A stretch of DNA of 64,000 nt from Candidatus Bathyarchaeia archaeon (GCA_049513715.1 JBEKVV010000002.1:32001-96000), one strand, 5' to 3'. Positions 18,907 to 45,477 are shown, numbered from the stretch's first letter. The notes: generated by a model not told the origin, from the letters alone. Translations and numbers: made by a program.

Positions 18907-19060
18907 TGGCGCCGGGGGGTGGGATTTGAACCCCCTCAGTTCCTGTGCGGGGCTGGATGAACACCCGATGTTCGTTGTCTTCGACAGCACCGTCCCTGGA
19001 CAATCAGGTTCACCTGCTAAGCTACGGCAATCACGCACTAAACTCTTAGGTTCAAATCTG
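18907..19060 (-). repeat. att-like site R1: tRNA-Ser 3' end plus conserved element
   Basis: TGGCGCCGGGGGGTGGGATTTGAACCC (one extra G relative to the tRNA), then GGCTGGATGAACACCCGATGTT...GGACAAT...GCACTAAAC. Confidence 0.85.
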
Positions 19061-19095
19061 CCCGACTGAGACGACAAACACGAAAACGGATGAAA

Positions 19096-22000
19096 CTAAA
19101 GCCTATGGAGTGCTGCTTCCGCTTTCTCTAGGTCTCTTTTGGCGCCAAGCTTTCTGAAGATCTCAACTGCCATCTCGAGGTGTCTTCGGGACTCGGCGGG
19201 GGATGCTTTCGCGATTGCTTCCGCATATTCAACTAAGGCTTTGGCGCGGTAGTATGGCCAACCAGCCTTCTCCCACAGGTTAAGAGATTCCAAGTATTTT
19301 TCTTCAGCAGCCTTCCGGTCGCCACGCGCGAACAGGACGAGGGCTTCAGCTTGTGATGCCATAGCTAAGCCCGCATCACTCTTCAACGTTTCAGCCAGCC
19401 GCCTAGCCCACTCAGACATTTTCCGAGTCTCCTCCCATCTCCCGCCTTTTGCGTGGAGCGAAGTTAGCTGAAGGAGGGTCTCGACGTGGAGCAAGGGTTC
19501 CGTGGTGAATTCCCAATTCCTGAACGCGTCCACGGATTTTTCGAAGTGTGTTCTGGCTTCCTGTTCTTTGCCCTGTTCCAGCCTCAGTAATCCTAAAGCT
19601 AGGTTTGTGGTCACGATGACGGTGATCTTGGGGACTTTTTCGGTCAGGTGCTCGGCTGCTTGAAGAATTTTCTCAGCCTCTCCCAAGTCTCCCATGCTCA
19701 GGGCGTACCATCCTCTCCAGGCTTCGTGTTCGACTGTGGTGATGTCGATTCCGATTCCCAGTCGCTCCATGATCGCGTCTGATTTCTGGAATTGTTCCAA
19801 AGCGCTCGCCCAGTCTCCTCGAAGCCAGTCGAGGACCGATAACCACCACAAGCCTCGTGCCTCCGAAGTCATCAGGTTTGCGCTCTTGGCTAGTTCGACG
19901 GCCTTCAGGGCAAACTCACGTGCCTTCCCTAAGTTCCTAGGGTAGGTGTAGAAGCTCAAGTTGAAGACGCAATTCCGCGCTACCAAAAGGTCTTCGTGCT
20001 GTAAAGCTAGCTCGTACGCTTGATGCCAGAGCGGCAGACCTTCATCAATTTTCCCTGTGTCAGTTAGGTAAGACCCTTGCATGCTAAGTGCGCCTGCTAC
20101 GGCTTGGGTGTTGTTCGTCTTCTTCCCCACTTCTAGAGCCTTCTCAGCCCACATGTTTGCCTCATCAAATTGATCCATGAGCCCAAGAAACCATGCCAGT
20201 GAATAGTAGGTCGAGGCTGCCTCGGAGCTATCGGGTTCGCCCTGCAGGTAATTGAGGCCACGCTTCATGACGATCGTAGCCTCTTGAGCACCCGGTTCGC
20301 TCTTCACGGTGGTGATCGCTTCGGCGATTTCCCTGCATGTTCGTGCGCATGCCTTGTTATCATGTGATTTTTCGAAGATTGAGAGCGCCTGTTCATAGGA
20401 TTGTGTACTGTTCTTGAGGTGGCCAGTGAACGCGTAGCATGCACCTAGCTTCTCTAACAAGGTTGCTGTCTCTCCTGCTTTCTCTCCTTCGAGGTCGAGG
20501 AGCTCCACTGCCCGTCTGTAGTCTTTGATCGCGGGCTCGTAAGCGTAAATTGATTTGTTCAAGTCGCCGGCAATAACTGAATACTTGATGCAGCGCTCTA
20601 TGTCGCCGCCTTCCGAGAAATGGTTCGCTATGGCTTCGGCATGCCTGTCCAACTTCTTTGAGTAGAGTTTCTCCATCGCCTCGGCAATCTTGAGGTGATA
20701 CCTAGCTCGCTTGATTTGGATCAAGTCGTCGAGCAACATCTCTCTGATCCGATTATCCGAAAATCTGAACTTGCTCTTCTCACGGGGAACTTCGACGACC
20801 AAGCCCTGAGAAATAACTGCTTCCAGCCTTTGAACCAGTTGATCTTCAGTCGCCTTCGATACTTCCAGAAGAATTTCGAAGTCAAATTCGGGGCCAATCA
20901 CGGCGGCCCAAACCAGTACACCCAGAGTGTCAGGCTCTAACTTTGACAGCCTCGACCTCAACGTAGATTTTACGCTCTCAGGAACAACAATCTCCTGAAT
21001 CGGTTTTCTGTCCCAACCTCCCTCGGTGCGGAATATGGTACCGTCCTCGACAAGTGAACGGAGCACTTCTTCTACGAAGAAGGGGTTGCCGCCGGTTGTC
21101 TTGTGAATGATATCTGTAAACTCCGTGCTTACCTGTTTTTCTCCGAAGATCCGGTCGATGAGTTCGACTGTATCCTCCTGCCTTAAACTCTTGACCGGCA
21201 AGCTCTCAAGAAGCCTATCCCTGTTGAGTTTCGCCAACATCTTATGGATTGGTGTGTCGGGCCCAGCATCTTCGGTTCGATACGTGCAGACTACCAAAAC
21301 TCGAAGGTTGCCCGTACTCCTCACGAAATACTCGAGCAGATCAAGCGACGCTTGATCAGCCCACTGCAAGTCATCGAACAGAAGAAGGAGTGGCGTTTCC
21401 TTAGAGATGGATGTTAGAAAATGGGTTATCGACTCGAAGAGCCTGATCCTGTCCTGCTGTTCGCCGAGCGGCTTAGACGGTGGAACAGTTCCAATTTTGG
21501 CCGCTATATCTGGCACTAGCCTAGCAAAATCTGAAACGTGCGTGCCCAGCATCCTACGAATTAGCTCGCCAGGAGCCTCGCCGATGTACTCGCGGCTCAC
21601 TTCGACCCACGGAGCGTATGGGATCCTATCCTCAGATCCTCTTCCCACTAAAACGGTCGCATCCCTCGACCGCGCGTACGATGCCAATTCGCGCATGAGA
21701 CGGGTTTTGCCTACGCCGGCTTCACCGTGGAGTGCTACTATGGATGATTTGTTGTTGAATGCGTCGTCGAGGGCGCCTTTGAGCTTCGAAACTTCATCCG
21801 TTCGGTTCACAAGGGGTGTTAGCCAACGAGGTTCCCGGAAGGCAACGGTAGGAATCGACGCCTCCTCGCTTGGAGCATATTCGAACATTAACTCAGTAAG
21901 CCCAAGTTCCTTTTCAGTTACGGTTATTCCTTGCATCCATTTTACGAGAAGTGATTTCTTTTCCCCTTCTTCGACGATTTCCAGATTACCGTCGAAGAGC

Positions 22001-22542
22001 CCTACAACGGCTTGGACTTCCTCGTCGGCATGCATGTGCGGATTGAAGACAGCCAGCGTCGTTATGTTCTTCGCTCGTAAGCGTTCTAGGAGCTCAGTCA
22101 ACCATTTTCGAGTTTGAAGAGCCTTATGTCGAAGCAGAACATCAGACAAGATATCCAGCACTACACGCTTAGGTTGAACCGAACTTAGTGCGTCGGTTAT
22201 CTGGAAGTTCACGTCAGTCAGATTGTCAATCCCCTTACCCGGGATCACGTTCTTGGAAGGCGGAACGGGCTTGTCGCTGCAAATAAGTGAACGCTCATAT
22301 TCCATCTCAGTCGGCACGATAGACTGGGCCGAGGATAGCGTTCGACAGATCAGCAGGCTAGATTCCTGAACGCCCTTGAGGAAATTCCGCAGCAGAACCG
22401 GAACCTCGTCGCTTGCGGCAGCGTTCAGCACAACCATAGAACCAGCAAGAAAACCGCCCTGTAGAGCCTCATCCAGCCTACCGTAACCCGTCGAAACCTT
22501 AGCCCGTAAGGTAGGACTGATCGAAGCCCCTTCGTTAGTCAA
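19096..22542 (-). CDS. Degenerate KaiC-like domain + STAND/AAA_16 NTPase + TPR protein (1148 aa)
   Basis: VSTGYGRLDEALQGG without a Walker A lysine; GEAGVGKTRL; LLLFDDLQWAD; TGGNPFFVEE; C-terminal TPR-like repeats. Confidence 0.85.
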   Translation of the reverse strand: MTNEGASISPTLRAKVSTGYGRLDEALQGGFLAGSMVVLNAAASDEVPVLLRNFLKGVQESSLLICRTLSSAQSIVPTEMEYERSLICSDKPVPPSKNVIPGKGIDNLTDVNFQITDALSSVQPKRVVLDILSDVLLRHKALQTRKWLTELLERLRAKNITTLAVFNPHMHADEEVQAVVGLFDGNLEIVEEGEKKSLLVKWMQGITVTEKELGLTELMFEYAPSEEASIPTVAFREPRWLTPLVNRTDEVSKLKGALDDAFNNKSSIVALHGEAGVGKTRLMRELASYARSRDATVLVGRGSEDRIPYAPWVEVSREYIGEAPGELIRRMLGTHVSDFARLVPDIAAKIGTVPPSKPLGEQQDRIRLFESITHFLTSISKETPLLLLFDDLQWADQASLDLLEYFVRSTGNLRVLVVCTYRTEDAGPDTPIHKMLAKLNRDRLLESLPVKSLRQEDTVELIDRIFGEKQVSTEFTDIIHKTTGGNPFFVEEVLRSLVEDGTIFRTEGGWDRKPIQEIVVPESVKSTLRSRLSKLEPDTLGVLVWAAVIGPEFDFEILLEVSKATEDQLVQRLEAVISQGLVVEVPREKSKFRFSDNRIREMLLDDLIQIKRARYHLKIAEAMEKLYSKKLDRHAEAIANHFSEGGDIERCIKYSVIAGDLNKSIYAYEPAIKDYRRAVELLDLEGEKAGETATLLEKLGACYAFTGHLKNSTQSYEQALSIFEKSHDNKACARTCREIAEAITTVKSEPGAQEATIVMKRGLNYLQGEPDSSEAASTYYSLAWFLGLMDQFDEANMWAEKALEVGKKTNNTQAVAGALSMQGSYLTDTGKIDEGLPLWHQAYELALQHEDLLVARNCVFNLSFYTYPRNLGKAREFALKAVELAKSANLMTSEARGLWWLSVLDWLRGDWASALEQFQKSDAIMERLGIGIDITTVEHEAWRGWYALSMGDLGEAEKILQAAEHLTEKVPKITVIVTTNLALGLLRLEQGKEQEARTHFEKSVDAFRNWEFTTEPLLHVETLLQLTSLHAKGGRWEETRKMSEWARRLAETLKSDAGLAMASQAEALVLFARGDRKAAEEKYLESLNLWEKAGWPYYRAKALVEYAEAIAKASPAESRRHLEMAVEIFRKLGAKRDLEKAEAALHRL

Positions 22543-22643
22543 ATTCCCAGACGCCTAAACCCACCTAGTCTTCAGCCCGCCCAAAATAGTTACGGTCTAT
22601 CGCAACCCAAGCTTATCTTCGTCCCACTGAGGGAGGGGAACTC

Positions 22644-22889
22644 ATGATTCTCTGTAACAAGTTCGGTTTCGTCAAAGTTAGACAAAAAGGCAGTCATATA
22701 GCACTGGAACGGGATGGAACATTCGTCACAGTACCAGTGAAGGAAATTCGGGCGGGTCTCCTAAACAGAATTCTAAGAGATTGCAACATAGGTAGAAACG
22801 ATTTTATCGAATCTTGGCAATACTTAATCGAATTAGTGGCGAACCCCAGCGCGTACGCTAAGAAAGCTGGCGCCGGGGGTGGGATTTGA
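22644..22889 (+). pseudogene. hicA: Orphan HicA-like toxin, apparently N-terminally eroded
   Basis: FGFVKVRQKGSH...VTVP...GLLNRILRD; no hicB nearby; the stop falls inside att-like R2. Confidence 0.65.
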
Positions 22890-23068
22890 ACCCCCGTGGT
22901 TTTCCCTGCTTGACTGGATGAACTCCGGAAGTTTGTCAGGGCGCGAGCCGTTCTCGTCGATCAACTAAACTCACGCTTCACTAATCGCATATCCTACACT
23001 AAATGTTTAGGTCAACATCGGACAATGTTGAGGTCAAATTCCTGTGCGCCAGCTGAGCCGACGGCGAC
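22868..23068 (-). repeat. att-like site R2: exact 26-nt tRNA-Ser 3' end plus conserved element
   Basis: 22868-22893 is identical to 45367-45392; followed by CTGGATGAACTCCGGAAGTT...ACTAAAC...GCATATC...TCAACAT-N6-ATGTTGA. Confidence 0.9.
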
Positions 23069-24433
23069 TTATTTCGTGAGGCCACACTGTCTCCTGAGTT
23101 TCTCCACGAGTTCTAGGTATCGGGGGTCGGCTCTTGCCTTGGCGAGGAGTGGCGAGTACATCATCGTTGAGGGAGTTATCGTATGGGCTTCGAGAGCCTT
23201 GTTCAGGTGCTCGAAGTATGAGTCGAGGTCTCCGAGGGCATGGTAGACGTACGCCATGAAGTTGAAGCCGACAGGCCCCATCTTGGCGTCCTCAATCTTC
23301 TTGACAGCGAGCAGCGCTTTCTCTCTGTTGCCCTCCCAAGCGGCGAGCATTCCTCCCATCCAGATGATCCGAGAATTGGTGGGATCGAGCCTCTCGACCT
23401 TTGAATGGAACTCCCTAGCCTTCTCCAAGTTCCCCTTGATCAGGTAGTACTCCATCATGCCCCTGTAGGTGAACGCCGGAGCCATCTGCTCGGTTGTACC
23501 CCAAAGCTCTAGCGCCTCCTTCTCCCTCCCGACCCAGAGGTATGTCGTCCCGAGAAGCCAGATCAATCTGGGGCTGATGGGGTCCAAGCGGTAGGCAGCC
23601 TCAATCTGTTTCACCATCTCAGCCGGGTCTCCTTTTAGTCCAGCTATTTCGGACAGCAAGCGATGGGGGGTTGGGAGGCTGGGGTTGAGTTCCAGCGCCC
23701 TTCTCGCCTCCGCCTCCGAGCCCGGCACATCGTCCTCGGTGAATAACATGTTCGAAAGCGCCGCGTGAGCCTCCGCAAGGTCAGGGTCGAGGTCGATGGC
23801 ACGCGGCACTGTTGACTTCACATTTGAGAGGGAGACGTCAGCGGGCTCGTAGCCACCGTCACCAAGCAATGTGTGGCACTCTCCAATCTCTACGTACGCT
23901 CTCGCGAACTTGGGATCCAGCTCTATGGCCTTCTCGAAGAGGCCTATGGCCTGTCTGGCTGAGGCCGCGGTGGCCTCCCTTAACAGTTCCCTGCCCCGGA
24001 GAAAGTTGTTGTACGCCTCGATGTTCTCGGTAGGCTTCTTCTCCAGGGTTCTCTTCTCAGAGTCGAGGAGCTGTGTTCTGAGTTCTCCTGCGACTTTCTC
24101 CGCTATCTCGCTCTGGACGGCGAAGATGTCGTCCAAGTTCTTGTCGTAGTGGGAGGACCAAAGGTGTTCCTCGGTGGCTGCGTTGATTAACTGGACTGTG
24201 ACTCTGACCCGGTTTCCCGCTTTCCTTACGCTACCTTCTATCAGAGATCCGATATTCAGTTCCTTTCCTACCTCCGAGGCTCCCTTCTGAGAACCCTTAT
24301 ACTTCATCACCGACGTTCGAGCTATGACCTTCAGACTCTTCACTTGGGCAAGCCTGTCAATCAGCTCCTCCGTCATACCGTCTGCGAAGTATTCATCATT
24401 CGGATCGGGGCTCATGTTTTGCAGCGGCAACAC
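23069..24433 (-). CDS. TolB-like N domain + TPR protein, lacking an N-terminal effector domain (possibly truncated)
   Basis: RIAVLPLQNMSPDPNDEYFADGMTEELI, EGSVRKAGNRVRV, TPRs; in-frame stop about 30 codons upstream. Confidence 0.8.
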   Translation of the reverse strand: MLPLQNMSPDPNDEYFADGMTEELIDRLAQVKSLKVIARTSVMKYKGSQKGASEVGKELNIGSLIEGSVRKAGNRVRVTVQLINAATEEHLWSSHYDKNLDDIFAVQSEIAEKVAGELRTQLLDSEKRTLEKKPTENIEAYNNFLRGRELLREATAASARQAIGLFEKAIELDPKFARAYVEIGECHTLLGDGGYEPADVSLSNVKSTVPRAIDLDPDLAEAHAALSNMLFTEDDVPGSEAEARRALELNPSLPTPHRLLSEIAGLKGDPAEMVKQIEAAYRLDPISPRLIWLLGTTYLWVGREKEALELWGTTEQMAPAFTYRGMMEYYLIKGNLEKAREFHSKVERLDPTNSRIIWMGGMLAAWEGNREKALLAVKKIEDAKMGPVGFNFMAYVYHALGDLDSYFEHLNKALEAHTITPSTMMYSPLLAKARADPRYLELVEKLRRQCGLTK

Positions 24434-24668: not shown

Positions 24669-24854
24669 TGGCGCCGGGGGTGGGATTTTCACCCCGTGGG
24701 TGTGTCCGAAACACCCCACGGCTGGATTTGAACCCCCCGCACTTTTTGTGCTTGGCTGGATGAACACCGGATGTTTATTGTTGGATGAGCTTTTCTCGTC
24801 GGACAATCGGTTCACGAACGAACATAGTGCATATCTTGGACTAAACTCCTCTGG
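24669..24854 (-). repeat. att-like site R3 with a 41-nt hairpin insertion
   Basis: TGGCGCCGGGGGTGGGATTT-[41 nt]-GAACCC, then GGCTGGATGAACACCGGATGTT...GGACAAT...GCATATC..GGACTAAAC. Confidence 0.85.
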
Positions 24855-25508
24855 TCAGTCCTCGATTGCCACTACTCTTACCGGGGCGCCTGTTACTCCT
24901 TTGACTTTCAGAGGGAGAGCTATCAACTTGAACCGTGTTTTGGAAAGCGCTTGTAAGTTCACCAGTCCATTAATGTACGGTATTCCATTCCGGAGCAGAA
25001 TCTTGTCCGGAATCAATTCAGTCGGTGGAATGCGGGGGTCGCAAAACAGAGCGACGTCACCTGCGACAAGTTTCACCTTGCGTTCAACCAGCCATTGAGC
25101 AGCCTCATTGGACATATGCGGCGTATTCGACACATAATCTTCCGACCCCCAATGGCTCTCCCAACCCGTTCGAACCAGTGCAATGTCTCCCTTCCCAATA
25201 TTCGACCCTATGCGGTCGAAGTCTTCAGGGGTTAAGCAGCTCAGCGGTTTTCCTTTGTTTTTGAAATCAAGCAATTCTGCCTCTCCCATGAGCAAGTCCA
25301 GCGGTAATTCAGAGCTTCGCATAGAACCTACGAAGAAATGCGATGGTGCGTCTATATGTGTGCCAACATGATCTGCGATGACGATCTTGTATGCGTCGTA
25401 TCCAATCACCCCGATCTCAGCGATTCTCTCAATCTCAATCGGGGGAAACGGCGAACCATACGTCCAGGCCCCAACCGCAATCTCTCCTGAGAGATCAATG
25501 ATTTTCAC
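24855..25508 (-). CDS. Cyclase family metal-dependent hydrolase (kynurenine formamidase-like)
   Basis: KIIDLS, HVGTHIDAPSHF, RTGW, GAPVRVVA; GTG start after GGAGGT. Confidence 0.88.
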   Translation of the reverse strand: MKIIDLSGEIAVGAWTYGSPFPPIEIERIAEIGVIGYDAYKIVIADHVGTHIDAPSHFFVGSMRSSELPLDLLMGEAELLDFKNKGKPLSCLTPEDFDRIGSNIGKGDIALVRTGWESHWGSEDYVSNTPHMSNEAAQWLVERKVKLVAGDVALFCDPRIPPTELIPDKILLRNGIPYINGLVNLQALSKTRFKLIALPLKVKGVTGAPVRVVAIED

Positions 25509-25599
25509 AGAGACTAACCTCCAAGCAAGAACTGCGTTCCAGCACATTAAAAGAGATTGATACTTCGACTGGAGTGGCGTTACGTTTCGCGGAGAATAA

Positions 25600-25614
25600 T
25601 TACGAATTACGTAA
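25600..25614. promoter_or_regulatory. Palindromic candidate operator TTACG-AATTA-CGTAA
   Basis: Perfect TTACG-N5-CGTAA in the divergent cyclase/permease intergenic region; the same motif occurs at 33583. Confidence 0.55.
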
Positions 25615-25721
25615 CTGTTGACGCATCCAACATTAGCAATACGTAGAGTTGGGTTCCAATTTGCAAGGCAATCGAAATTGTCAAATACTAGGCCCCAAGC
25701 TGACTCCAACAGGGATTTCCG

Positions 25722-27329
25722 GTGAGCTCGGAAAGGTCTGAGGTTTTTGCGAGAAAAGCTAGCGGTCTTGTACGCCATGCGTCGTGGTTTGATGGGTTCC
25801 TGACTAGCATTGGTACTATGAACATGATTTGGATTGGTGTTTCCTTCATCTGGGCCCTGTCCCTGTTCCCTGGATCGTACTTTGACGTCTCCATAATCCT
25901 AGCCACCGTCCTATGCCTCTTCAACGCCGTTCTCTTCGCGCAGTTCTCCTCAATGATGCCTCGCTCTGGCGGAGATTATGTTTTCAACAGCCGTGGCCTG
26001 ACGCCCAGCCTCGGCTTTTCCGTGAACTTCAGCATGGTCGTCTGGAACCTGTTTTGGATCGCGTACACTTCCTGGATCTTAAGCTCCGTATACGCCTCAT
26101 CAGTCTTCACAATAATTGGCACAGTCCTGAAGTCAGACTACTGGACCGCGTTGGGTACACAGGCTGCGCAACCTCTCGTATCCTTCATAATTGGCGCCAT
26201 AGTCGTCTTGTTCATCGGCTTCATCACGTTCATGGGCCTCCGCCCGTTCTTCAATGTCATGAAAGTAGCCTTCGTCATCGGCATGATCGGAATCTTCGCA
26301 CTCATCTTCGTCTTGGCCACCTCGTCCCAACAGGCGTTCGTAAACGCCTTCAACGGATTCGTCGGTCCCGGCGCCTACGATTCGGCCATTAGCACAGCAG
26401 TCAAGAATGGTTACACGGCCGGGACGAGAAATTGGACCAACACAATCATGGCAATCGCAATCGCCTTCCAGCCACTCGGCTTCTCGGTTTGGTCATCATA
26501 CATCTCCGGCGAGATTAAGGACGCAAAACGATTCAAAACCAACGCACTCTCGATAGTTGGCAGCCTAGTCGTGATGGCAGTCTTCCTTCTGATCTTCTGG
26601 TATCTGTCCGTGGCGGTCTTCGGCTACGACTTCATGGGCGCCACAGGCTTTCTCTTCTACAACGCTCCAAGTGCATCTCCACTCTCGATTCCTCCAAGCA
26701 CGAATTTCTTCGGTTCACTCTTGGCACCAAACTTGACCTTGGATTTGCTGATTGGAATCGGTTTCCTCGCATGGGCTTTCCTCTACGCGCCGCAATCAAT
26801 GCTCATGGTTAACAGGTGCATGCTGGCTTGGACAATCGACCGACTCGCGCCGAAGAAATTCGGAGAAGTGAACTCACGCTTCCACACGCCAACATACGCA
26901 ATCCTACTATCAACCCTTCTCGCACTGGTCTTTCTAGGTGTCTTCGTTTTCACAACGGGCTGGTTCTCAATCTATGGGTTCAACGCCTTCATAGGTGGCG
27001 GAACGATCACTTTCATAGCAGTAGGAGTCGCAGGAATACTCTTCCCATACAGGAAATCCACCAAAGACATCTTCAAATCCTCCCCAGCCAACCAACGCGT
27101 ACTCGGCATCCCGGTAATGACAATCAATGGAATCGTAACGGTTCTCTTCATGAGCTTCGTAACAATCCTTTACCTCCTACCATGGAGTGGAGTCAACACC
27201 GCTCCTTCAGTCGGGTTCATCGTCTTCCTGTACATACTGGGATTCGTTTGGTACTATGCAACAAGGGCTTATCAGAAGAGAAAGGGTGTCCCGGTAGAGC
27301 TAGCCTTCAAAGAGATACCGCCGGAATAG
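25722..27329 (+). CDS. APC-family amino acid permease
   Basis: ARKASGLVR, MPRSGGDYVF, GEIK, C-terminal FKEIPPE. Confidence 0.9.
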   Translation: MSSERSEVFARKASGLVRHASWFDGFLTSIGTMNMIWIGVSFIWALSLFPGSYFDVSIILATVLCLFNAVLFAQFSSMMPRSGGDYVFNSRGLTPSLGFSVNFSMVVWNLFWIAYTSWILSSVYASSVFTIIGTVLKSDYWTALGTQAAQPLVSFIIGAIVVLFIGFITFMGLRPFFNVMKVAFVIGMIGIFALIFVLATSSQQAFVNAFNGFVGPGAYDSAISTAVKNGYTAGTRNWTNTIMAIAIAFQPLGFSVWSSYISGEIKDAKRFKTNALSIVGSLVVMAVFLLIFWYLSVAVFGYDFMGATGFLFYNAPSASPLSIPPSTNFFGSLLAPNLTLDLLIGIGFLAWAFLYAPQSMLMVNRCMLAWTIDRLAPKKFGEVNSRFHTPTYAILLSTLLALVFLGVFVFTTGWFSIYGFNAFIGGGTITFIAVGVAGILFPYRKSTKDIFKSSPANQRVLGIPVMTINGIVTVLFMSFVTILYLLPWSGVNTAPSVGFIVFLYILGFVWYYATRAYQKRKGVPVELAFKEIPPE

Positions 27330-38253: not shown

Positions 38254-39609
38254 ATGTGGACCGTTAAGTCGGAATCTGGGACGCTTCACGCAGCCCTCAT
38301 ACAGGACACGACTAGGAATTTCTGGGAGAACAAACTGCCCTTCGTCGGCGGAGAATCGAACTTACAATACCTACCCAGATGCCCCCACGCCGACTACGAC
38401 GCCGGGGGACATGACCAATGGTTGAAACTGGGACAGTTCTTCGAGGAAGAAGGGGTGCAAGTGTTCGAAGTCACCTCGATTCTGAGGAAGGCTATCGAAC
38501 GAGCATCGGAAGCGGGACGAAGGGAAATAATCAAAATGTTCTGGGGCGAGAATCCCCGGGCTCCATCCCCCGCTGAACTCAAGGTTGAACACATAACTGA
38601 CGGCTACCCGCCGACGCCATACTACGACCAAGCTAATGATCAAGTCATACTTCCCGACTTCAAGAGAGCAACGTGGACTTACACCAGGGACACATCATTC
38701 ACGACTCAGATAGGGACGGTCATCTGCAACATGCGCAGATACAGCAGACTACTTGAGCCAAAAGTTGTGAAACTCGCATACGAGTCCGACCCAGTCCTGA
38801 AGAAGAATGTCAGCCTAATCTGGGACGCGAACGACCTAACCATAGCAAATACAGAGTCACCAAACATTGAGGGAGGCGATACCGAAATAATCGATGAAGA
38901 GACCATAGCAGTTGGCCTCGGGCAACGGTCAACTTTTACAGGTTTCTTAGAGTTTGCCAAGAGAATATTTTCCACTGATCCGAATAAGCAGGTCAAGTAT
39001 GTTTGCGCGGTCTTCAATGCTGATTATCCAGCAGTGGACTACATGCACCTAGATGTTGTCATCAACTTTCCAGCAAACCGGAAGGCGCTCATCATGCCCT
39101 ACTATTTTGAGAGCGAAATAGTCAAAGACATGCCCCCGAAAAAACTCCTGCTGAAACTGCTCGCCGCCACAAGGGCGCAATCGGAACGCGATGCGAGGCC
39201 CATGCATGATGTTGTAGGCCCCGCCGCGTTCGAGAAAGCGGGTCAATGCTACGTGTACGTCAGGGGTGAACGAAATGAACCCGTGCTTCTGAGGCGTGAG
39301 GTGAGCCTCGTAGACTTCCTGATCAAAGAGGACAAGATTGACAAGGACGGTTTGATTTTTGTGGGCGGGGAACCGAAGGAGAAGAACGACATGAAGCACC
39401 TGATGCTCGCGCTGATGGAGCAGACTCGCGGCGCAACCAATATAGTGACAGTAAAATCGGGCACAGTCATATCCTACGCCCGAACCACAGCCACCCTTGA
39501 AGCGCTGAAACAAAACGGAATCCGCGTCAAGAAATGGGATGACAGTTACCTAGACATGCTAGGAGGACCGCACTGCTCAACAGCCCCACTCTCCAGAGAC
39601 CCTAACTAA
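38254..39609 (+). CDS. Arginine deiminase-like amidinotransferase-superfamily protein
   Basis: VKSESG, YTRD, IEGGD, MHLD, GGPHCST (catalytic Cys). Confidence 0.82.
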   Translation: MWTVKSESGTLHAALIQDTTRNFWENKLPFVGGESNLQYLPRCPHADYDAGGHDQWLKLGQFFEEEGVQVFEVTSILRKAIERASEAGRREIIKMFWGENPRAPSPAELKVEHITDGYPPTPYYDQANDQVILPDFKRATWTYTRDTSFTTQIGTVICNMRRYSRLLEPKVVKLAYESDPVLKKNVSLIWDANDLTIANTESPNIEGGDTEIIDEETIAVGLGQRSTFTGFLEFAKRIFSTDPNKQVKYVCAVFNADYPAVDYMHLDVVINFPANRKALIMPYYFESEIVKDMPPKKLLLKLLAATRAQSERDARPMHDVVGPAAFEKAGQCYVYVRGERNEPVLLRREVSLVDFLIKEDKIDKDGLIFVGGEPKEKNDMKHLMLALMEQTRGATNIVTVKSGTVISYARTTATLEALKQNGIRVKKWDDSYLDMLGGPHCSTAPLSRDPN

Positions 39610-39917
39610 AGGATATGAATGCCATCCAGGAACACGCTGACTTCGTAGCGTTCACCAGTGGGTGGCCCAGCAAGAACCCCTGCAAGGTTGTCCATCAGTT
39701 CCCGGTAAAGAGGGCTGGTTTCGAATTGTGTCAGGTCGTCTTGCGTTTCCCATAGGTTGATCGAGATCGCTTTCCCGGTGTCGCGCTGTGTAAGCAGAAG
39801 TTGACCTTTGAACCCCTTTTGCTTCTGCATAACCGGTACAATGGAATCTTTGACTATGCGGCTTGCTTCCTGAATCTTCCCGGATTGAAACTGGACGTTC
39901 ACCGCTCTCGCATACAT
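39606..39917 (-). CDS. ABM (antibiotic biosynthesis monooxygenase-like) domain protein
   Basis: MYAR...QKGFKG...SINLWET...YEV dimeric alpha-beta barrel pattern. Confidence 0.75.
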   Translation of the reverse strand: MYARAVNVQFQSGKIQEASRIVKDSIVPVMQKQKGFKGQLLLTQRDTGKAISINLWETQDDLTQFETSPLYRELMDNLAGVLAGPPTGERYEVSVFLDGIHIL

Positions 39918-40117
39918 CCCTTATCTCCTCACACGCTTGAATCGTTCTCTCAAGTACTTGGGCTTTCCTAGAAGTTCATCAATGAATCAGAAACAAGACA
40001 GTGGCCCTAATAATCGGGCAAAAGGAGGAGCTACAAATCACAGAGGCACAAATTCGAGGTAGGGCTCGCAGTTATCCAGTGGAAATGAGTGTACTGGGTT
40101 CGTCAGTTTGCGTATTC

Positions 40118-40312
40118 GGTGGGATTTGAACCCCCCGCAGTTCCCGTGCGTGGCTGGATGAACCCCGGAAGTTTGTTGGGGCTTGATTCTTTCTCGCTAG
40201 ACAACTAAACTCATGTTCCACTAATTGCATATCTAGCACTAATTGTTTAGGTCAACGTTGGACAATGTTGAGTTCGAACTCTTGTCCGCGTAAGCTGAGC
40301 AGACGGCGACTT
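40118..40312 (-). repeat. att-like site R4: 16-nt tRNA T-arm match plus conserved element
   Basis: GGTGGGATTTGAACCC, then ~180 bp colinear with R2. Confidence 0.85.
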
Positions 40313-41000
40313 CTATTTCGTTATACCCACGTGCTCTCTGACTTTCCGCACTAGCACCGAGTATCGTGGGTCGGTTCTTGCCTGGGCGAAGAGTGGTGAG
40401 TGCATCAGGAATAAGGGGACTAGTGCATGGGTTTCAATGACCTTGTACATAAGTTCGAAGAAGGAGTCGAGGTCTCCGAGGGCGTAATAGACGTAGGCGA
40501 TGTAGTTGAAGGAGATCGGTCCCATTTTCGCGTCCTCAATCCTCTTTATCATGAGCAGCGCCGTCTCCCTGTCGCCTTCCCTAGCTGCAATGACTCCTCT
40601 CACCCACATGACCCAGGGACGAGTGGGCTCAAGCTTCTCCGCCTTCGCATGAAACTCCTTAGCTTTCTCGATGTCGCCCTTGGTTAGGTAGTAATCCGTC
40701 ATGCCCCTGTAAACCTCTGCTGGGGCTAGTTGCTCGGTCTTCTTCCAGTGTTCTAGTGCCTCCTGATGCCTGCCCGTAAAGAGGTATGTTTCTCCAACAA
40801 GCCAGATGTAGTGGGGTCTCAGTGGGTCTAAGCGGTAGGCTGTCTCTATTTGCTTAACCATCTCTCCTTCGTTCCCTCTGAGTGCAGCCAGTTCGAACAA
40901 ACAACGGTATGGTTCGGTGAGACTCGGGTTAAGCTCCAACGCCTTTCTTGCCTCCGCCTCTGCACCCGGCATGTCGTCCATATCGAAGAGCAATCCCGAG
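40313..41000 (-). pseudogene. 3' part (TPRs) of the IS-interrupted KaiC-like/TolB-like/TPR gene
   Basis: Paralogous to the C-terminal half of 23069-24433; joins in frame to 43749-45147 once the IS is removed. Confidence 0.88.
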
Positions 41001-41060
41001 GGTAACGTCACTTCTGCGTTTGGTGAAAGCATCTCGTAGCTGTGTAACAATTCGTTTGGT

Positions 41061-41546
41061 TCAGTAGCGTCTTTCGTAGCGAGAAAGTTTAATCTTCGCC
41101 TTGGCTGGCCTGAGAATTGTGCGTTGTATGCGTTCCCTGAAAGTTATGTCAAATTTCAAGAAGACTGAATCCCGACCCAGTACAGTATACGGTATAGCCT
41201 CTGGATTGACTGGGACGAAGACAGGCATGTCTGCGAAAGTTGCTATATTATTTCCCGCTTTCAAGACCTCGATGGTGAGGTTGAAAATCACTGTGTCGAA
41301 CCCGCCGCCTGCACCTATAGATGGTGTTGCCTTTTTGGGGTCTATTTGGAGACCTAAGATTTCTGCTAGGTCTGTTGGGACGAATGTATTGGTCGCTCCT
41401 GAATCAACAAGACCTAAAGTTGTTAGACTTGCTGTTGCTGTCCTAAGTCTGACATGGAGAAGCGGAACCCTAAACGCTCGCTTAAGCAGGGGATGATAAT
41501 ATGAAAGATAACGATTTACTACAGCACCTTTGAAAAGAGAGGACAA
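41061..41546 (-). CDS. Retropepsin-like aspartyl protease
   Basis: LVDSGA...LAEILGL...VLGRD. Confidence 0.82.
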   Translation of the reverse strand: MSSLFKGAVVNRYLSYYHPLLKRAFRVPLLHVRLRTATASLTTLGLVDSGATNTFVPTDLAEILGLQIDPKKATPSIGAGGGFDTVIFNLTIEVLKAGNNIATFADMPVFVPVNPEAIPYTVLGRDSVFLKFDITFRERIQRTILRPAKAKIKLSRYERRY

Positions 41547-41552
41547 GTTAGG

Positions 41553-41747
41553 TTACAGCAGCATTACGGTGTCGGACGGAATTTTCATAACGAATGGCTC
41601 CTTGTCTGGATACCTTCGTTTGGCTTCCGCGAACACTTCTTTTCCGCTGTCACCAGATGCAACAAGTTCCTTGCCAACGAGCGCAATCCATTTGCCTACA
41701 TACTCGCGTAGATCGCCCATTGACATTAGGTAGTTCAAATAGTCCAT
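41553..41747 (-). CDS. DUF5678-like small protein
   Basis: YVGKWIAL...VASG....V..EAK..YP...PFV. Confidence 0.75.
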   Translation of the reverse strand: MDYLNYLMSMGDLREYVGKWIALVGKELVASGDSGKEVFAEAKRRYPDKEPFVMKIPSDTVMLL

Positions 41748-41817
41748 TTTTCTCTACTCCTGAAAAATAACAACTGTACATTTAACCCTGTTGTTCGCCT
41801 ATCCAATGTTACAGTCG

Positions 41818-42015
41818 TTAATCCTCTTTCCTTCTAACAGTTTTAGACGGGTCGGCGCTAATCCAGAGAACAATGGCTTCCTCGACAGCTTCCGAGATGT
41901 TGCCTTTTTTCATGCCTTTACGCTTGAAAACCTCTTCTTTGAACCGCTTTTCTCTGTCTGCTGGCAAATACACATCTATTCGAGATTTGCCTTTTGGGAC
42001 GCTTGGAGACACCAT
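41818..42015 (-). CDS. Ribbon-helix-helix-like DNA-binding protein
   Basis: RIDVYLP...KRFKEEV...GNISEAVEEAI; divergent from the transposase. Confidence 0.65.
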   Translation of the reverse strand: MVSPSVPKGKSRIDVYLPADREKRFKEEVFKRKGMKKGNISEAVEEAIVLWISADPSKTVRRKED

Positions 42016-42123
42016 CTAGCCCTCAGAAAGCATATAGACACATTACCACTTATAACCTTTACCCCCTTACCACCAGCTTTATCTAGGAAAGAGGCGTATA
42101 GGTGTTTAAGTGGTAAACCACCA

Positions 42124-43248
42124 ATGCAAGTCCTCAGAACTCGTGAAGAAAGGGGCCGAATAATTGCCGAAAAGTCTAACCAAATTGTTCGATTGGATGA
42201 ACGGTTCTACCGTGTAACTTCTCAGTCTGGCAATGGAATGTATGATGTGACCAAGCGCAAGGTCGGTGGATGGTTATGTACTTGCCCCGACTTCGAGTTT
42301 CGTAACGTTCAATGTAAGCACGTTTGGGCTGTCCAATTCAGCCTAGCCGTAAGGAAAGAGGTCGAGGCTAGAGTCATTGAGCCAATAACAGACATACACG
42401 CTTGCCTATTCTGCAAATCCGAGAACATAATTCGCTGGGGCTTACGCCACAACAAGTACGGCGACATTCAGAAATTCTCCTGCAAATCATGTGGCAAATT
42501 CTTCACGATCAATCTAGGCTTTGAGAAGATGAAGCACAGCCCTCAAGCGATAACGACAGCCATGCAACTATACTTCTCAGGCGAAAGTCTACGGAATACG
42601 GCTAGATCGCTACGCTTGATTGGAGCGCAAGTGAGCCATCAGACAATCTACAGGTGGATAGCCAAGTACACGACATTGATGGAGAAATATCTGGACAAGA
42701 TTACGCCTCAAGTCTCGGACACTTGGGCCACAGACGAATTATTTCTGAAGATTAAGGGGAACATGAAGTATCTCTACGCTATGATGGATGAGCAAACACG
42801 GTTTTGGATAGCTCAAGAGGTTGCGGATACGAAATACACGGCTGACGTTCGACCACTATTCCAACTCGCCAAGCAAATCGCAGGCAAGCAACCAAAGACG
42901 CTCGTCTCTGACGGTGCGGCCAATTTCCATGAAGCATACCTGAAAGAGTTCCGCACAGCCAAACTTGAGAACAGAACCGAACACATACGACACATCAGAC
43001 TAGCAGGAGATTACAACAATAACAAGATGGAGCGCATGAACGGGGAAATCAGAGACCGAGAAAAAGTGATGCGGGGCTTAGAAATCAAAGACAGCCCAAT
43101 ACTCAAGGGCGTACAAATCTACCATAACTTTGTGAAGCCGCACATGGCACTAGACAACAGAACACCCGCTCAAGCAGCGGGAATAGAAGTCAAGGGCAAA
43201 GACAAATGGCTAACAATCATACAGAACGCTAGTCAAGAGAAAACCTAA
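42124..43248 (+). CDS. IS6-like DDE transposase with N-terminal SWIM and Zn-ribbon domains
   Basis: CTCPDF...CKH, CLFC...CKSC, WATDE, VSDG, NNKMER; ATG at 42124 preferred over 41791. Confidence 0.9.
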   Translation: MQVLRTREERGRIIAEKSNQIVRLDERFYRVTSQSGNGMYDVTKRKVGGWLCTCPDFEFRNVQCKHVWAVQFSLAVRKEVEARVIEPITDIHACLFCKSENIIRWGLRHNKYGDIQKFSCKSCGKFFTINLGFEKMKHSPQAITTAMQLYFSGESLRNTARSLRLIGAQVSHQTIYRWIAKYTTLMEKYLDKITPQVSDTWATDELFLKIKGNMKYLYAMMDEQTRFWIAQEVADTKYTADVRPLFQLAKQIAGKQPKTLVSDGAANFHEAYLKEFRTAKLENRTEHIRHIRLAGDYNNNKMERMNGEIRDREKVMRGLEIKDSPILKGVQIYHNFVKPHMALDNRTPAQAAGIEVKGKDKWLTIIQNASQEKT

Positions 43249-43279
43249 TCCCAGTTCTCGATAAACTTAGGAAGTCTTG

Positions 43280-43513
43280 TCAAGTCTTGTTCGGCGACTT
43301 GAGGAGAGCTATCCAGTCAAGCGCCCTCTTCTTCACCTCACCAACCGAGGCTTTTTCACCGATTTCGATTAACGCAGGTATAGCAGTTACACCAAATGCG
43401 GCGACAGCGTTAACTGCTGATACTCTAGCTTCATAATCTGCCCATTTCGCATACGTAGGCATAGATTGTAGAGCTACCCCCTTCAGTCTATCTATCTGCT
43501 CCTTCTCTGACAA
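43280..43513 (-). CDS. Small HEAT-repeat-like hypothetical protein (IS passenger)
   Basis: ARVSAVNAVAAFGVTAIPALIE helical repeat pattern. Confidence 0.5.
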   Translation of the reverse strand: MSEKEQIDRLKGVALQSMPTYAKWADYEARVSAVNAVAAFGVTAIPALIEIGEKASVGEVKKRALDWIALLKSPNKT

Positions 43514-43748
43514 TGCTGAGCACTTCCTCTATCCCTTTTCTATATGGATGATTCATGTACCATGCCAGAAAAGCCTTTGCGTCATTTCCATCCATTTTGA
43601 GTATGATCTCGAAGAAGCCAAGCTCGTTCCGTAGATGCCTCGTCACACGCCATCTTAACCACCGATTTACAAACGCTCTACGCCACCGACCAAACGGTTT
43701 GTTACAGCCCAAAAAAATCGGTCTACCAAACTAAGACGTTACGTTACC

Positions 43749-45147
43749 ATCCCGAGAGACATGAGTGAGCCTCGGGCAAGTCGGGGTCCAGGTTGATGGC
43801 ACGATCTAGCGGTGCCTTCGCATTTGAGAGGGAACCACCGTAAGAATCCTGTCCGGATTCGGCAAGGGCCAGGTGACACTCGGCTATACCCACATACGCC
43901 CTCGCGAACTCGGAGTCCAACTCGATGGCCTTCTCGAAGAGACTTATAGCCTGCCTAAGAGAATCCTTAGTCTCCTCCCTGAAAAGTTCCCGGCCCCGCA
44001 GAAAGAATGTGTACGCTTCAGTGTTCTCGGTAGGTTTCTTCTCCAGAGTTCTCTTCTCGGAGTCCACCAGACGAACCCTGAGCTCCTCTGCCACCTTCTC
44101 AGCTATCTCCGATTGTATGGCGAAAACATCCTCCAGCTGCCTATCATAGTTCTGAGCCCACAGATGCTTATCACCTGCCACATCGATAAGCTGGGCAGTG
44201 ATCCGTATCCTATTTCCCGCTTTCCTGAAACTGCCCTCAAGAATGGAACCCACGTCCAGTTCTCTACCGATCTCGCCTAGTTTCTTCGCGGTCCCCTTGT
44301 ATCCCATTACTGATGTTCTCGAGATGACACTAAGACCACTAATCCCTGACACAATGGAGATGATCTCCTCAGTTATGCCATCCGCGAAATACTGGTCGTT
44401 TGTGTCCGGGCTCATGTTAGCGAATGGCAGGACTGCGATTCGAGTCTTCTCAAGCTCTGACTTGCTCACGCTCCTCTTCTCAGCTACGAGTCCCTCCAGC
44501 GGGAATTCTCTCTGGGACATTTCTACTCCATGAGCCCACTTGATACGGAAGAACTTCCGTTGTCGTCCCTCGACATCTCTCTCGAAGATTTCTATGCTCG
44601 CATCGAACACGTCCTCCAACGCCTGCGTCTCCTCGGCCGTGTGCATGTACGGATTGAGAACTGCGAGGGTTGTGATACCCCTTCCACGGAGTCGTTCCAA
44701 GAGTTCGTTGAGCCATTTCCTCGTTTGAAGCGCCTTATGCCTCAGCAATACGTCCGAGAGAATATCCAAGCCGAGGCGTTTCGGGTGGGTGGCGCCTAAG
44801 GCTTCGTTGATTTGAAGGTTCAAGTCGGTGAGGTTCTCGATTCCCTTACCGGGCAGGATGCCCTTTGCGGGTGAGACGGGTTTGTCGCTGCAAATCAGAC
44901 ATGCCGTGCCTTCAGCCGCATCTGGCACGATCACTTGGGCGAAGGAGAGGTTACGGCATATCAGTAAGCTAGGCTGCTCGCTCTTCAGGAACTTACCCAG
45001 CAGAATTGGCACCTCGTCGCCTGCTGGAGCGTTCAGCACAACCATGGAACCAGAAAGGAACCCCCCGTGTAGAGCCTCGTCCAGTCTACCGTAACCAGTT
45101 GAAACCTTCGTCCGAATAGAACTGACCGAGGCGCCTTCGGAGGTCAC
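43749..45147 (-). pseudogene. 5' part of the KaiC-like + TolB-like + TPR gene interrupted by IS6
   Basis: N-terminus paralogous to the 22542 gene (VSTGYGRLDEAL, LSDVLLRHKALQTRKWL), then RIAVLPFANMSPD. Confidence 0.88.
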
Positions 45148-45366
45148 GTTAATTCGCGCACAATCACTCCCCACAGCTATATTATCCCTGAGACTGGTTG
45201 CATCAGCCGGACATCAGCCAATCAGCACGAGCGAGCAACGATTCCATCGAGCCTTTCTTTATGAGTCATGAATACGAGACTCGATTATTCGGTAGGCCGT
45301 AGACTGAACTGTTGACTCGTGACAAGCCGTGCTCATTGTCGCATGAGCAACGTTACGTGAAGGAGT

Positions 45367-45477
45367 TGGCGCCGGGGGTGGGATTTGAACCCACGAGACT
45401 CAGAGAGTCATCGGCTTAGCAAGCCGACGCCATACCAGGCTACCAGACCAATGTTGCGGTCTCTTGGCTACCCCGGC
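45367..45477 (-). tRNA. tRNA-Ser(GCT) with encoded CCA and a 23-nt intron at position 15/16
   Basis: GCCGGGG/CCCCGGC acceptor stem, TCGGC-TTGCTAA-GCCGA anticodon arm, long variable arm, GGTTCAAATCC; intron at 45440-45462. Confidence 0.93.

Follow-up and report, generated by a model that had tools for sequence, protein, structure and literature searches.

The array at the tRNA-Ser(GCT) gene of a peat-soil archaeon, Candidatus Bathyarchaeia archaeon (GCA_049513715.1 JBEKVV010000002.1:32001-96000), very probably consists of four remnants of small integrative elements that were inserted successively at this gene by a self-splitting tyrosine integrase. The mechanism is a known archaeal route of gene capture, found here in a new lineage; what is new, as judged from sequence, is a partitioning integrase outside Pfam PF16795, its mesophilic Bathyarchaeia background, and a short N-terminal fragment, Int(N). 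An array that appeared to be integrase-less and integron-like thereby becomes an instance of a known mechanism, a lower claim than that of the preliminary description.

ARAGORN identified a single tRNA, Ser(GCT), at 45367-45448 (minus strand) of the window, the whole 64,000-nt stretch analyzed here. By eye, the gene extends over 45477-45367 with a D-loop intron of ~22 nt (about 45441-45462), and comparison with the orthologous genes in the related genomes G014, G016, G018, and G004 gave GCCGGGG as its true 5′ end. An exact copy of its 26-nt tail, GGGTTCAAATCCCACCCCCGGCGCCA, lies at 22868-22893, and a copy with 2 mismatches lies at 24669-24694 (0 matches in 100 shuffles); the copy at 18907 carries one extra C, and that at 40118 is partial, with only about 16 to 17 nt in common. 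All copies share the same orientation on the minus strand, and a homologous, colinear element of ~190 bp, which the real tRNA lacks, precedes every one of them. The co-oriented recurrence of the tRNA 3′ end at 18907, 22868, 24669, and (partially) 40118, the fusion of every tail to this element, and the approximate cassette sizes had all been put forward in the preliminary description and stood up to measurement: cassettes A to D span 5.25, 15.45, 1.80, and 3.96 kb, respectively. The features of the locus are as follows.

45367..45477, minus strand: tRNA-Ser(GCT) gene with encoded CCA (ARAGORN; Rfam tRNA, 36.5 bits), which is the proximal att site (attL) of cassette A
40313..45366, minus strand: cargo of cassette A, a KaiC-like/DUF7504-TPR gene in two parts, 43744-45174 and 40313-41050 (Pfam)
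41791-43248, plus strand: DDE transposase of the insertion in cassette A, which also holds an aspartyl-protease-like ORF at 41061-41546
40118..40312, minus strand: R4, putative promoter region and Int(N), then T-loop and a diverged acceptor part; attR of cassette A (nhmmer, 176 bits)
40064..40117, minus strand: Int(C) remnant, linker codons after the att site of one integrase subfamily (…AACCCAGTACACTCATTTCCACTGG…; motif shared with relatives)
24855..40063: 15-kb cargo of cassette B (Pfam)
24669..24854, minus strand: R3, putative promoter region and Int(N) joined to an intron-bearing tRNA-Ser tail; attR of cassette B (tblastn)
23069..24433, minus strand: cargo of cassette C, one TPR gene of 454 aa (Pfam)
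22868..23068, minus strand: R2, putative promoter region and Int(N), then the exact 26-nt tail; attR of cassette C (sequence searches, in-frame peptide)
19096..22889, both strands: cargo span of cassette D
19096-22542, minus strand: KaiC-like + AAA_16 (STAND) + TPR gene of cassette D, 1148 aa (Pfam)
22644-22889, plus strand: HicA-like ORF of cassette D, overlapping the R2 tail (Pfam)
18907..19095, minus strand: R1, the most decayed copy, with a frameshifted Int(N) and the extra C in its tail; attR of cassette D

The repeated element is, by sequence, a putative promoter region followed by the first ~30 codons, Int(N), of a tyrosine integrase. The R4 frame is open from a TTG at 40204-40202 and yields the in-frame peptide SSEKESSPNKLPGFIQPRTGTAGGSNPT, R3 is open from a GTG at 24815-24813 (ORF 24450-24815), and R2 is open from a TTG at 22964-22962. 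An N-terminal peptide, …LSDEK..P.FIQPST.N.GGSNPTPGA, is read in one frame in R2 to R4 and across a frameshift in R1. R3 aligns with residues 4 to 51 of an unsplit metagenomic integrase, that of locus L192 (tblastn; 44% identity, E 5e-4), and for R2, integrase residues 6 to 41 match C2:54857-54964. At the protein level, integrase residues 1 to 45 match element copies in the window (R3 and R2) and in G014, G016, G018, and G020. The genome of the window holds 9 element copies (nhmmer) on contigs C2, C3, C4, and C5, so that they are not confined to the tRNA-Ser locus. The upstream half of the element is conserved yet noncoding, contains a TAAGATATGC box, and probably acts as the promoter.

A reading of the element as a functional noncoding sequence, either an att arm that binds protein or a structured RNA ending like a tRNA, is most improbable. 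It would draw on the conserved noncoding upstream half, on internal direct repeats seen by eye in alignment A2 (TTGTCCGAYG twice and CATCCRG twice), and on weak codon periodicity. The first coding test, on the 165 nt upstream of the T-loop, found no frame open in more than 5 of the 35 copies and no clear 3-base substitution periodicity (0.237/0.277/0.273), an outcome that we attribute to the ~90 nt of promoter within the tested span and to the decay of dead copies. Against the noncoding reading, the frame continues without a break into a PF00589 integrase, and copies that differ at the DNA level are conserved at the protein level. RNAalifold on 27 element copies predicted 4 pairs, all within the T-arm remnant, with 0 covariation and no attC-like hairpin, and an Rfam scan of 17000-47000 returned no family except tRNA at the real gene; a structured RNA was rejected on these two results. 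The noncoding reading is thus largely refuted for the 3′ half of the element, and the upstream half could hold binding sites as well as the promoter. The preliminary description had taken the element to be noncoding, which has to be given up because its 3′ half, by sequence, encodes the integrase N terminus (the L192 protein, the R3 tblastn match, and the shared peptide); as a promoter region with Int(N), it is the kind of decayed integrase coding fragment that the same description had set against its own proposal.

Two properties of the element count against its interpretation as part of an integrase gene and so against the self-splitting integrase reading as a whole: DNA-level evidence of coding is weak, and the start codon varies among copies, being GTG in some and an invariant TTG in others. 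An inverted T-loop-like motif at the left end had also raised the idea of a MITE, which was dropped after no target duplications were seen by eye.

The remainder of the integrase is found in relatives and metagenomes. The metagenome contig L192 encodes, at 5369-6556, an unsplit tyrosine recombinase of 395 aa (PF00589, 56.6 bits, E 3.6e-15) that shows the R…K/HxxR…H…Y pattern by eye. Its ORF begins at the conserved GTG/TTG within an element copy and continues through the tRNA tail; past the tail, the earliest start codon is an ATG at residue 64, which falls within the W-M-Q of the conserved motif EIINFGLWMQKQGY. A second ORF, in L251, likewise spans element, tail, and conserved N-terminal domain, with one internal stop codon. 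Since the reading frame runs through the tRNA tail, integration splits the gene: by sequence, the att site lies inside the integrase ORF, at about codons 29 to 38, and the two parts, Int(N) and Int(C), border the integrated element. L191 shows this integrated form, in which residues 30 to 281 (81% identity) immediately follow a tRNA-Ser tail and residues 1 to 37 lie beside a second tail 3.5 kb away, and in G002 and G003, Int(C) comes immediately after a real, intron-bearing tRNA. Among full-length family ORFs, 9 of 11 carry the tRNA T-loop at the 5′ end of the frame. All 11 tested match PF00589 (37.6 to 74.8 bits) and none matches PF16795 at E ≤ 0.1; in a search of 5 genomes for PF16795, none reached the cut-off, and three weak matches lie elsewhere. 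XerA was the best solved relative in a PDB sequence search that also listed XerH, IntI4, and XerD, and the SSV1 integrase was absent from it. Family matches occur in 23/23 genomes of the genus, and complete members are common. The target is tRNA-Ser(GCT) in the window, G014, G016, G018, and G004, and other members are found at Val- or Gly-like tRNAs.

The genome of the window (G000) has 3 family fragments only and no complete family integrase. Its 4 PF00589 matches all lie outside the window, a family profile HMM run on six frames of the window recognized no Int(C) (all E > 0.3), and no resolvase was found in the genome. The absence of any tyrosine or serine recombinase from the window, as originally proposed, therefore holds in the sense that no catalytic domain is present. 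Of Int(C), only the ~50-nt remnant at 40064..40117 survives at the start of cassette B: in relatives, the AACCCAGTACACTCATTTCCACTGG motif follows the tail and leads into an EIISFGLWM-type integrase coding sequence, and homology to the C4 copy stops after this linker. A search for PF00589 near the arrays in G014, G016, G018, G004, and G020 found no adjacent match (none at all in G018 at E ≤ 0.01); it overlooked decayed pieces of Int(C), which were recovered later by tblastn.

We propose that the elements would enter the 3′ part of tRNA-Ser(GCT), from the T-loop to the 3′ end, one by one. At every insertion, the element's own copy would replace the tRNA tail, the old tail would be moved downstream, and the integrase gene would be cut in two. 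Int(C), with all catalytic residues, would end up beside the tRNA, and the promoter with the ~30 codons of Int(N) would come to lie at the opposite end, in fusion with the displaced tail. The newest cassette (A) would then lie next to the tRNA, with D the oldest. All Int(C) parts in the genome of the window would later have been deleted, save the ~50 nt after R4; with these gone and no intact family member left, the cargo would be fixed in the chromosome, and the cassettes have probably lost their mobility. Because the genome keeps only integrase fragments, the four cassettes are best viewed as captured cargo.

The number of genes per cassette ranges from 1 to about 13, and both strands are used. 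The KaiC-like/DUF7504-TPR gene of cassette A was probably split by the insertion, as both halves match uninterrupted genes of ~690 aa beside elements at other loci. Cassette B encodes a cyclase, amino-acid permeases, two metallophosphoesterases, a creatininase, a Zn-ADH, an AsnC regulator, an ECF/ABC transporter, an ornithine carbamoyltransferase, an arginine-deiminase-like protein, and an ABM monooxygenase; a paralogous gene set adjoins the element copies on C5. Cassette C has a compact form (tail, gene, Int(N), tail) without Int(C), which is also found in G004:C14 and at metagenome loci. A similar cassette (TPR gene and element) is present in G020:C6, where the script matched no upstream tail. 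PADLOC returned only a generic TPR model and weak matches for six KaiC/STAND/TPR proteins, and no defense role is therefore assigned to them.

The arrays at tRNA-Ser(GCT) vary among relatives. G016 has a sole cassette, whose 1152-aa gene shares the architecture of the cassette D gene, G014 has three, and others are different again, so that cassette content and order are not shared. In a tree of element copies, the four window copies represent no fewer than 3 lineages, all of which also contain copies of other genomes: R4 groups with copies of G015 and G004, R1 sits on a long branch, and the Int(N) copies linked to TPR genes make up a single clade, within which R2 and R4 are each paired with copies of other genomes. 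These patterns bear on the idea that one unit of gene, element, and tail was duplicated in tandem within the lineage by unequal crossing-over between tails, with no repeated integration. Three of the four cassettes do carry paralogous KaiC/STAND/TPR genes, and homology between units reaches into the genes. We nevertheless consider such duplication very unlikely: the element copies are nearer to those of other genomes than to each other, the cargo of cassette B is unrelated, and Int(C) remnants of different subfamilies sit after different tails. The tails, moreover, occur with or without a T-loop intron (~40 nt in R3), matching alternative functional tRNA ends in relatives, the R3 type being functional in G016 and G018. 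The view that repeated integration at a single tRNA left these tails behind, already held in the preliminary description, is upheld.

The array is not an assembly artifact, a concern raised at the outset. An independent metagenome contig is 99.92% identical to window positions 22344-33937 over 11,594 nt, and contigs with zero differences tile the array in 4 runs. In 24 runs, all flagged as possible sources of the window DNA, ≥99% of the words sampled from 18500-26500 are present.

Especially for the one-gene KaiC/STAND/TPR units, a tentative refinement of the self-splitting integrase reading is that they are proliferating non-autonomous elements with two att sites and Int(N), mobilized in trans by related complete integrases, which would resemble cis-mobilizable elements and, loosely, an integron. 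In 21 of the 99 element copies examined, a gene of the KaiC/TPR family ends <400 nt upstream on the same strand; Int(C) precedes the gene in none of these 21 cassettes, and 8 have a tRNA tail <900 nt before it. The recurrence of such IntC-less cassettes leaves room for movement in trans, and several such units may share an array, as with cassettes A, C, and D and with the two adjacent TPR gene and element units of L252. Complete family integrases are common in the genus, and split integrases require an exogenous complete integrase to excise, which related incoming elements can supply (PMC8371274). Against this, the genome of the window has no such integrase, and the TPR-linked clade fits old, vertically inherited duplications equally well. 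The copies are only 70 to 80% identical and hence give no sign of recent movement. The Logan contigs of 4 runs contained no tail-to-tail (att-att) joint, excised circle, or empty site, only breaks at repeats and one 71-nt skip in low-depth contigs; since contigs drop rare variants, this result speaks neither for nor against mobility. Of the earlier proposal of cassettes that lack a complete integrase of their own, need a recombinase in trans for further movement, and share a noncoding att arm, the first two parts were retained, and the third was replaced by the 5′ part of an integrase gene.

The lack of recognizable Int(C) in all four window cassettes counts against the self-splitting integrase reading, as does its lack in all 21 KaiC/TPR cassettes, which simple decay of autonomous elements does not obviously predict.

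The proposed layout can be compared with the suicidal (SSV-type, type I) integrases described for SSV1, pTN3, and pT26-2 (PMC8371274; PMC7253208). The systems share a tyrosine recombinase with the att site within its own ORF, a tRNA gene whose 3′ part is the target, a split that places Int(N) at one end of the integrated element and Int(C) at the other, relics that pile up at tRNA genes, excision that needs a complete integrase from elsewhere, and tandem junctions that can rebuild hybrid genes. PF16795 (Phage_integr_3) is given as the domain of all suicidal integrases, with a core of 40 to 50 bp, and the self-splitting type is described as one clade that carries PF16795 and is typical of hyperthermophiles (PMC8371274). 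Relative to these accounts, the Bathyarchaeia family differs in matching PF00589 only and in having XerA as nearest solved relative, in an Int(N) of ~30 codons and a shared core of ~26 bp versus 40 to 50 bp, and in its peat-soil Bathyarchaeia host, which is not a hyperthermophile.

The array is also like an SSV1-like element of a mesophilic soil archaeon in having a partitioning integrase in the same broad lineage; that archaeon we take to belong, as Bathyarchaeia do, to Thermoproteota sensu GTDB. Compared by description only, that element is a single one, without an array or one-gene cassettes. Suicidal archaeal integrases and their part in gene capture were reportedly treated by She et al. 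in 2001. In bacteria, CIMEs are att-flanked units without a recombination module that occur in tandem at one tRNA and are in principle mobilizable in trans. Cassettes A to D, with att sites on both sides and no recombination module, resemble them and tandem accretion of related elements. Bacterial integrases, however, remain intact upon integration, whereas the relic beside each att in the window is a piece of the integrase gene itself. With integrons (IntI, attI, attC), the array shares co-oriented gene units separated by a recurring sequence that bears a recombination site. The integron-like platform first suggested is nonetheless not borne out: no resident integrase lies beside the array, the recurring sequence is a gene fragment without a conserved attC-like hairpin, and cassettes vary from one gene to many, in both orientations.

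A broader synthesis, which we regard as rather unlikely in its entirety, would combine these strands. Self-splitting integrases of XerA-like type (PF00589, not PF16795) would have evolved independently in the genus, with a split that removes only ~30 N-terminal codons; integrase-less one-gene cassettes (KaiC/STAND/TPR gene, Int(N), and att) would be stacked, shuffled, and re-mobilized in trans at tRNA genes; tandem Int(N)-att-Int(C) junctions would rebuild working hybrid integrases; and an in-frame GTG in the T-stem of the tRNA may let Int(C) be made when integrated. This would amount to mesophilic, integron-like gene capture from a suicidal integrase. If the origin was indeed independent, the suicidal design arose at least twice and is no heat adaptation.

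Donors were also sought in viral contigs. These gave 0 matches to the element pattern, and with the tRNA-Ser tail as query the single match was an unrelated phage tRNA cluster (L190), rejected as a donor. A scan of genome contigs with a 17-mer, which is too short, found 120 loci; among the 80 listed, only L097 was Bathyarchaeota and the rest look like chance.

The findings extend the split layout to a peat-soil genus of Bathyarchaeia, in which the enzyme is PF00589/XerA-like and its Int(N) much shorter. The arrays also illustrate how accessory genes become fixed in a lineage, here a 15-kb block for nitrogen-compound metabolism and variable KaiC/STAND/TPR genes, and how integration exchanges tRNA 3′ ends, whether or not these contain a T-loop intron. 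In annotation work, any short conserved sequence joined to a tRNA tail should first be examined for Int(N), and only then be named a new repeat family.

tRNA-Ser(GCT) is the sole tRNA that ARAGORN finds in the window (45367-45448, minus strand). Sequence reading and comparison with orthologous genes place its true start at 45477 (GCCGGGG…) and identify a D-loop intron of ~22 nt, which both ARAGORN and Rfam mis-handle (45367-45477). The 26-nt tail of the gene (T-stem to CCA) recurs as an exact copy at 22868-22893 and as a 2-mismatch copy at 24669-24694 (0 matches in 100 shuffled controls); the tail at 18907 carries one additional C, and the tail at 40118 retains a common stretch of just ~16-17 nt. 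All copies share one orientation, and a homologous, colinear element, absent at the real tRNA, stands before each of them, in agreement with the preliminary description, whose coordinates and cassette sizes were also correct. The features are listed with the state of Int(N), the front part of a split integrase gene that we read in the element; Int(C) denotes the catalytic part.

18907-19095 (-), R1, element and tail copy; Int(N) frameshifted
19096-22889, cassette D, cargo
22868-23068 (-), R2, element and tail copy; Int(N) open from the invariant TTG
23069-24433, cassette C, cargo
24669-24854 (-), R3, element and tail copy; Int(N) open from GTG (24815)
24855-40063, cassette B, cargo
40118-40312 (-), R4, element and tail copy; Int(N) open from the invariant TTG
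40313-45366, cassette A, cargo
45367-45477 (-), tRNA-Ser(GCT)

ARAGORN counts 9 tRNAs in the 2.79 Mb of this genome, and dozens of T-loop and acceptor ends are present despite this count. Nine tRNAs at 99.4% completeness imply that most tRNA genes probably carry unusual, non-canonical introns. The functional 3' part of tRNA-Ser in two relatives (G016 and G018) is an intron-bearing end just like the R3 tail, which explains the T-loop insert of R3; successive insertions would therefore have swapped intron-plus and intron-minus tRNA ends.

The array is real DNA, and the possibility of an assembly artefact raised in the preliminary description is contradicted by two lines of evidence. An independently assembled metagenome contig aligns with window positions 22344-33937 along the full 11,594 bases (99.92%), spanning R3, cassette C, and R2. 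Furthermore, each of 24 peat or wetland runs (2017-2025), all of them possible sources of this DNA, contains 99% or more of the words sampled from 18500-26500, and zero-difference contigs tile this region in four of the 24, with R1 and R2 bridged by one contig. Excision joints were not found in the contigs of the four runs, where rare events do not show.

A structured RNA was ruled out as the identity of the element: Rfam recovered the real tRNA and no other family, and RNAalifold on 27 copies gave just four pairs, all within the T-arm remnant and with no covariation. A first coding test on the 165 nt upstream of the T-loop was also negative (no frame open in more than 5 of 35 copies, weak periodicity), which we attribute to the non-coding upstream ~90 nt and to a coding part of only ~30 codons in dead copies. 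The upstream half is a putative promoter, judging from a conserved TAAGATATGC box ~25-30 nt before the start.

Metagenome contigs scanned with a long element pattern yielded 65 loci (60 non-redundant) with 89 element matches. At one of them, L192, a single ORF among 373 neighbouring ORFs (5369-6556) encodes a 395-aa tyrosine recombinase (PF00589, 56.6 bits, E 3.6e-15). Starting at a conserved GTG/TTG within an element copy, its frame crosses the tRNA tail (encoding …GGSNPTPGA…) and runs on into EIINFGLWMQKQGY, a conserved motif of the N-terminal region. The first start codon past the tail is an ATG within this motif (residue 64), so the stretch separating tail and motif has none. A second locus (L251) has the same contiguous layout (residues 3-171, 79% identity). 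The integrated state is seen at L191, where the contig opens with a tRNA-Ser tail directly followed by residues 30-281 (81% identity), and residues 1-37 lie 3.5 kb away, joined to a second tail. In G002 and G003, Int(C) directly follows a real intron-bearing tRNA with a proper GTGGG T-stem. At the protein level, element copies in G014, G016, G018, and G020, as well as R3 and R2 of the window, match residues 1-45 of the integrase. Read in the tail frame, R2, R3, and R4 encode the peptide …LSDEK-SS…P-FIQPST-N-GGSNPTPGA; R1 does so once a frameshift is bridged. The 3' half of the element, first taken as non-coding, is thus the decayed integrase coding fragment that the preliminary description had named as the counter-case to its own reading.

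Of 11 full-length family ORFs, 9 have a tRNA T-loop at the 5' end of their frame; the tRNAs targeted include Ser-like, Val-like, and Gly-like ones, with one tRNA end inverted. Family matches occur in all 23 genomes of the genus, many with full-length copies; the window's own genome holds three fragments only. Searched with the family profile, the window gives no Int(C) match (all E > 0.3), in line with the earlier statement that no recombinase is present there; of the linker codons that follow the att site, only ~50 nt are left, after R4. The 98%-complete genome G018 (5 contigs) has no PF00589 match at E <= 0.01, yet contains Int(N) relics, which would leave it without a detectable XerA-type recombinase either. 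At L256 and L257 (G002:C42 and G003:C5), which represent the integrated state, Int(C) shares its frame with the GTG in the T-stem of the real tRNA (GTGGGTTCAAAT…), a position at which element copies have GGGGG. We speculate that Int(C), short by only ~25 residues, could still be translated from read-through tRNA transcripts.

She et al. 2001 reportedly described this split layout in archaea, with the element trapped after integration. With the att site inside the integrase gene, insertion into the tRNA would cut the gene, so that Int(C) comes to lie beside the tRNA while Int(N) ends up at the opposite end of the element; the element would then stay trapped unless a complete integrase came from outside. 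PMC8371274 and PMC7253208 give the same features (att in the gene, splitting on tRNA integration, need for an outside complete integrase) for suicidal, SSV-type archaeal integrases. On the minus strand the order would run tRNA, cassette A, R4, cassette B, R3, cassette C, R2, cassette D, R1, and we infer that the newest insertion would be the one adjoining the tRNA. The layouts at L192, L251, L191, G002, and G003 make it very probable, on sequence grounds, that the array arose by tandem capture of elements with a self-splitting integrase, which replaces the integron-like capture platform proposed initially.

The gene organisation of the Bathyarchaeia family, as read from sequence, agrees with that of suicidal integrases in every feature compared. 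In contrast, PF16795, the domain that the consulted portion of PMC8371274 gives for the suicidal-integrase clade, is found in 0 of 11 family members (E <= 0.1), all of which match PF00589 only; by sequence, XerA rather than the SSV1 integrase is the closest protein of solved structure. Int(N) (~30 codons) and the common core (~26 bp) are also shorter than the 40-50 bp att quoted in passages on suicidal integrases. A split SSV1-like integrase is noted once, in a passage of PMC6563490, for a mesophilic thaumarchaeon (NitEve-E3). Our search, with supplements outside it, found no literature tying suicidal integrases to Bathyarchaeia; the sole mention of Bathyarchaea in the consulted portion of PMC8371274 concerns topoisomerase IB, and a Bathyarchaeia virus paper mentions integrases just in passing. 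The novelty is moderate: the mechanism is already known and the variant is new.

A profile built from the copies, as first suggested, finds nine in the window's genome, four in the window and others on C3, C4, and C5; several of the copies outside the window show a constant GGGGGGTTCRAATCC followed by varying acceptor-like ends. A BLAST search detects the element in 14 of the genus's 22 other genomes and in none of 18 genomes from outside the genus. Relatives also carry co-oriented arrays downstream of tRNA-Ser(GCT), with content that differs from genome to genome: one cassette with a 1152-aa KaiC/STAND/TPR gene in G016, three cassettes in G014, and others in G004, G018, and G020. Local tandem duplication is disfavoured as the origin of the array, because a tree of 35 copies places the window's four in at least three lineages, each also containing copies from other genomes.

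Cassettes A, C, and D each hold essentially one gene, KaiC-like/DUF7504 and/or STAND (AAA_16) with TPR, and the 15-kb cassette B is a block of genes for transport and for the metabolism of nitrogen compounds. PADLOC did not convincingly assign the KaiC/STAND/TPR proteins to defence. Among 99 element copies (the window, loci of eight relatives, and 55 metagenome loci), a KaiC/TPR-family gene ends <400 nt upstream on the same strand in 21; none of these genes is preceded by Int(C), and a tRNA tail lies <900 nt before the gene in 8 of the 21, several others being cut off by contig ends. This recurrence of a unit lacking Int(C) could reflect a class of non-autonomous cassettes moved in trans, close to the original idea. 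However, the tree of 35 copies and identities of 70-80% fit at least as well with an old paralogous family, which could have been inherited along with the locus.

The cassette A gene is apparently interrupted by an insertion (41061-43248) encoding a 485-aa DDE transposase with a SWIM zinc finger (DDE_Tnp_IS240), beside which lies a 161-aa retroviral-type aspartyl-protease-like ORF. A HicA-toxin-like ORF (22644-22889, plus strand) terminates within the R2 tail, and PIN/VapC-like genes lie beside arrays in the window (18166-18564) and in G020.

Elsewhere in the window's genome, an element copy at C3:159916-160140 is joined to the tail of a tRNA other than tRNA-Ser (…GTGGGTTCCTATCCCACCGGCCCCACCA), and similar tails preceded by …TTAGTCCCACGAATCGTG occur at several places. 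Two neighbouring copies at C5:160100-165100 lie beside a metallophosphoesterase, a creatinase/prolidase-like peptidase, and an amino-acid permease, a set paralogous to some of the genes in cassette B. Two contigs have a 208-aa Helicase_C ORF of one type at their end (C4:240685-241311 and C3:527592-528218), starting 85 bp past an element copy on C4 and lying ~3.5 kb from one on C3; the assembly may break there through a repeated region. The left end of many copies has a GTGTGTG tract followed by TGGTGCGAGCAG…AATTTGAAC, readable as an inverted tRNA 3' end with ACCA (e.g., L003, at C4:240330-240400, L033, L037, L039, and L045), which may be what is left of an older, oppositely oriented att site. 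At L260 (G016:C2), a family integrase lies directly past an inverted tRNA end. Within cassette B, five tandem 27-nt units (GGCTCTATCTTACGGATTCCGAAATGA; 31767-31928), detected as overlapping 54-nt copies spaced 27 nt, lie just upstream of a Zn-alcohol-dehydrogenase gene (31995-33029) and may be a regulatory repeat.
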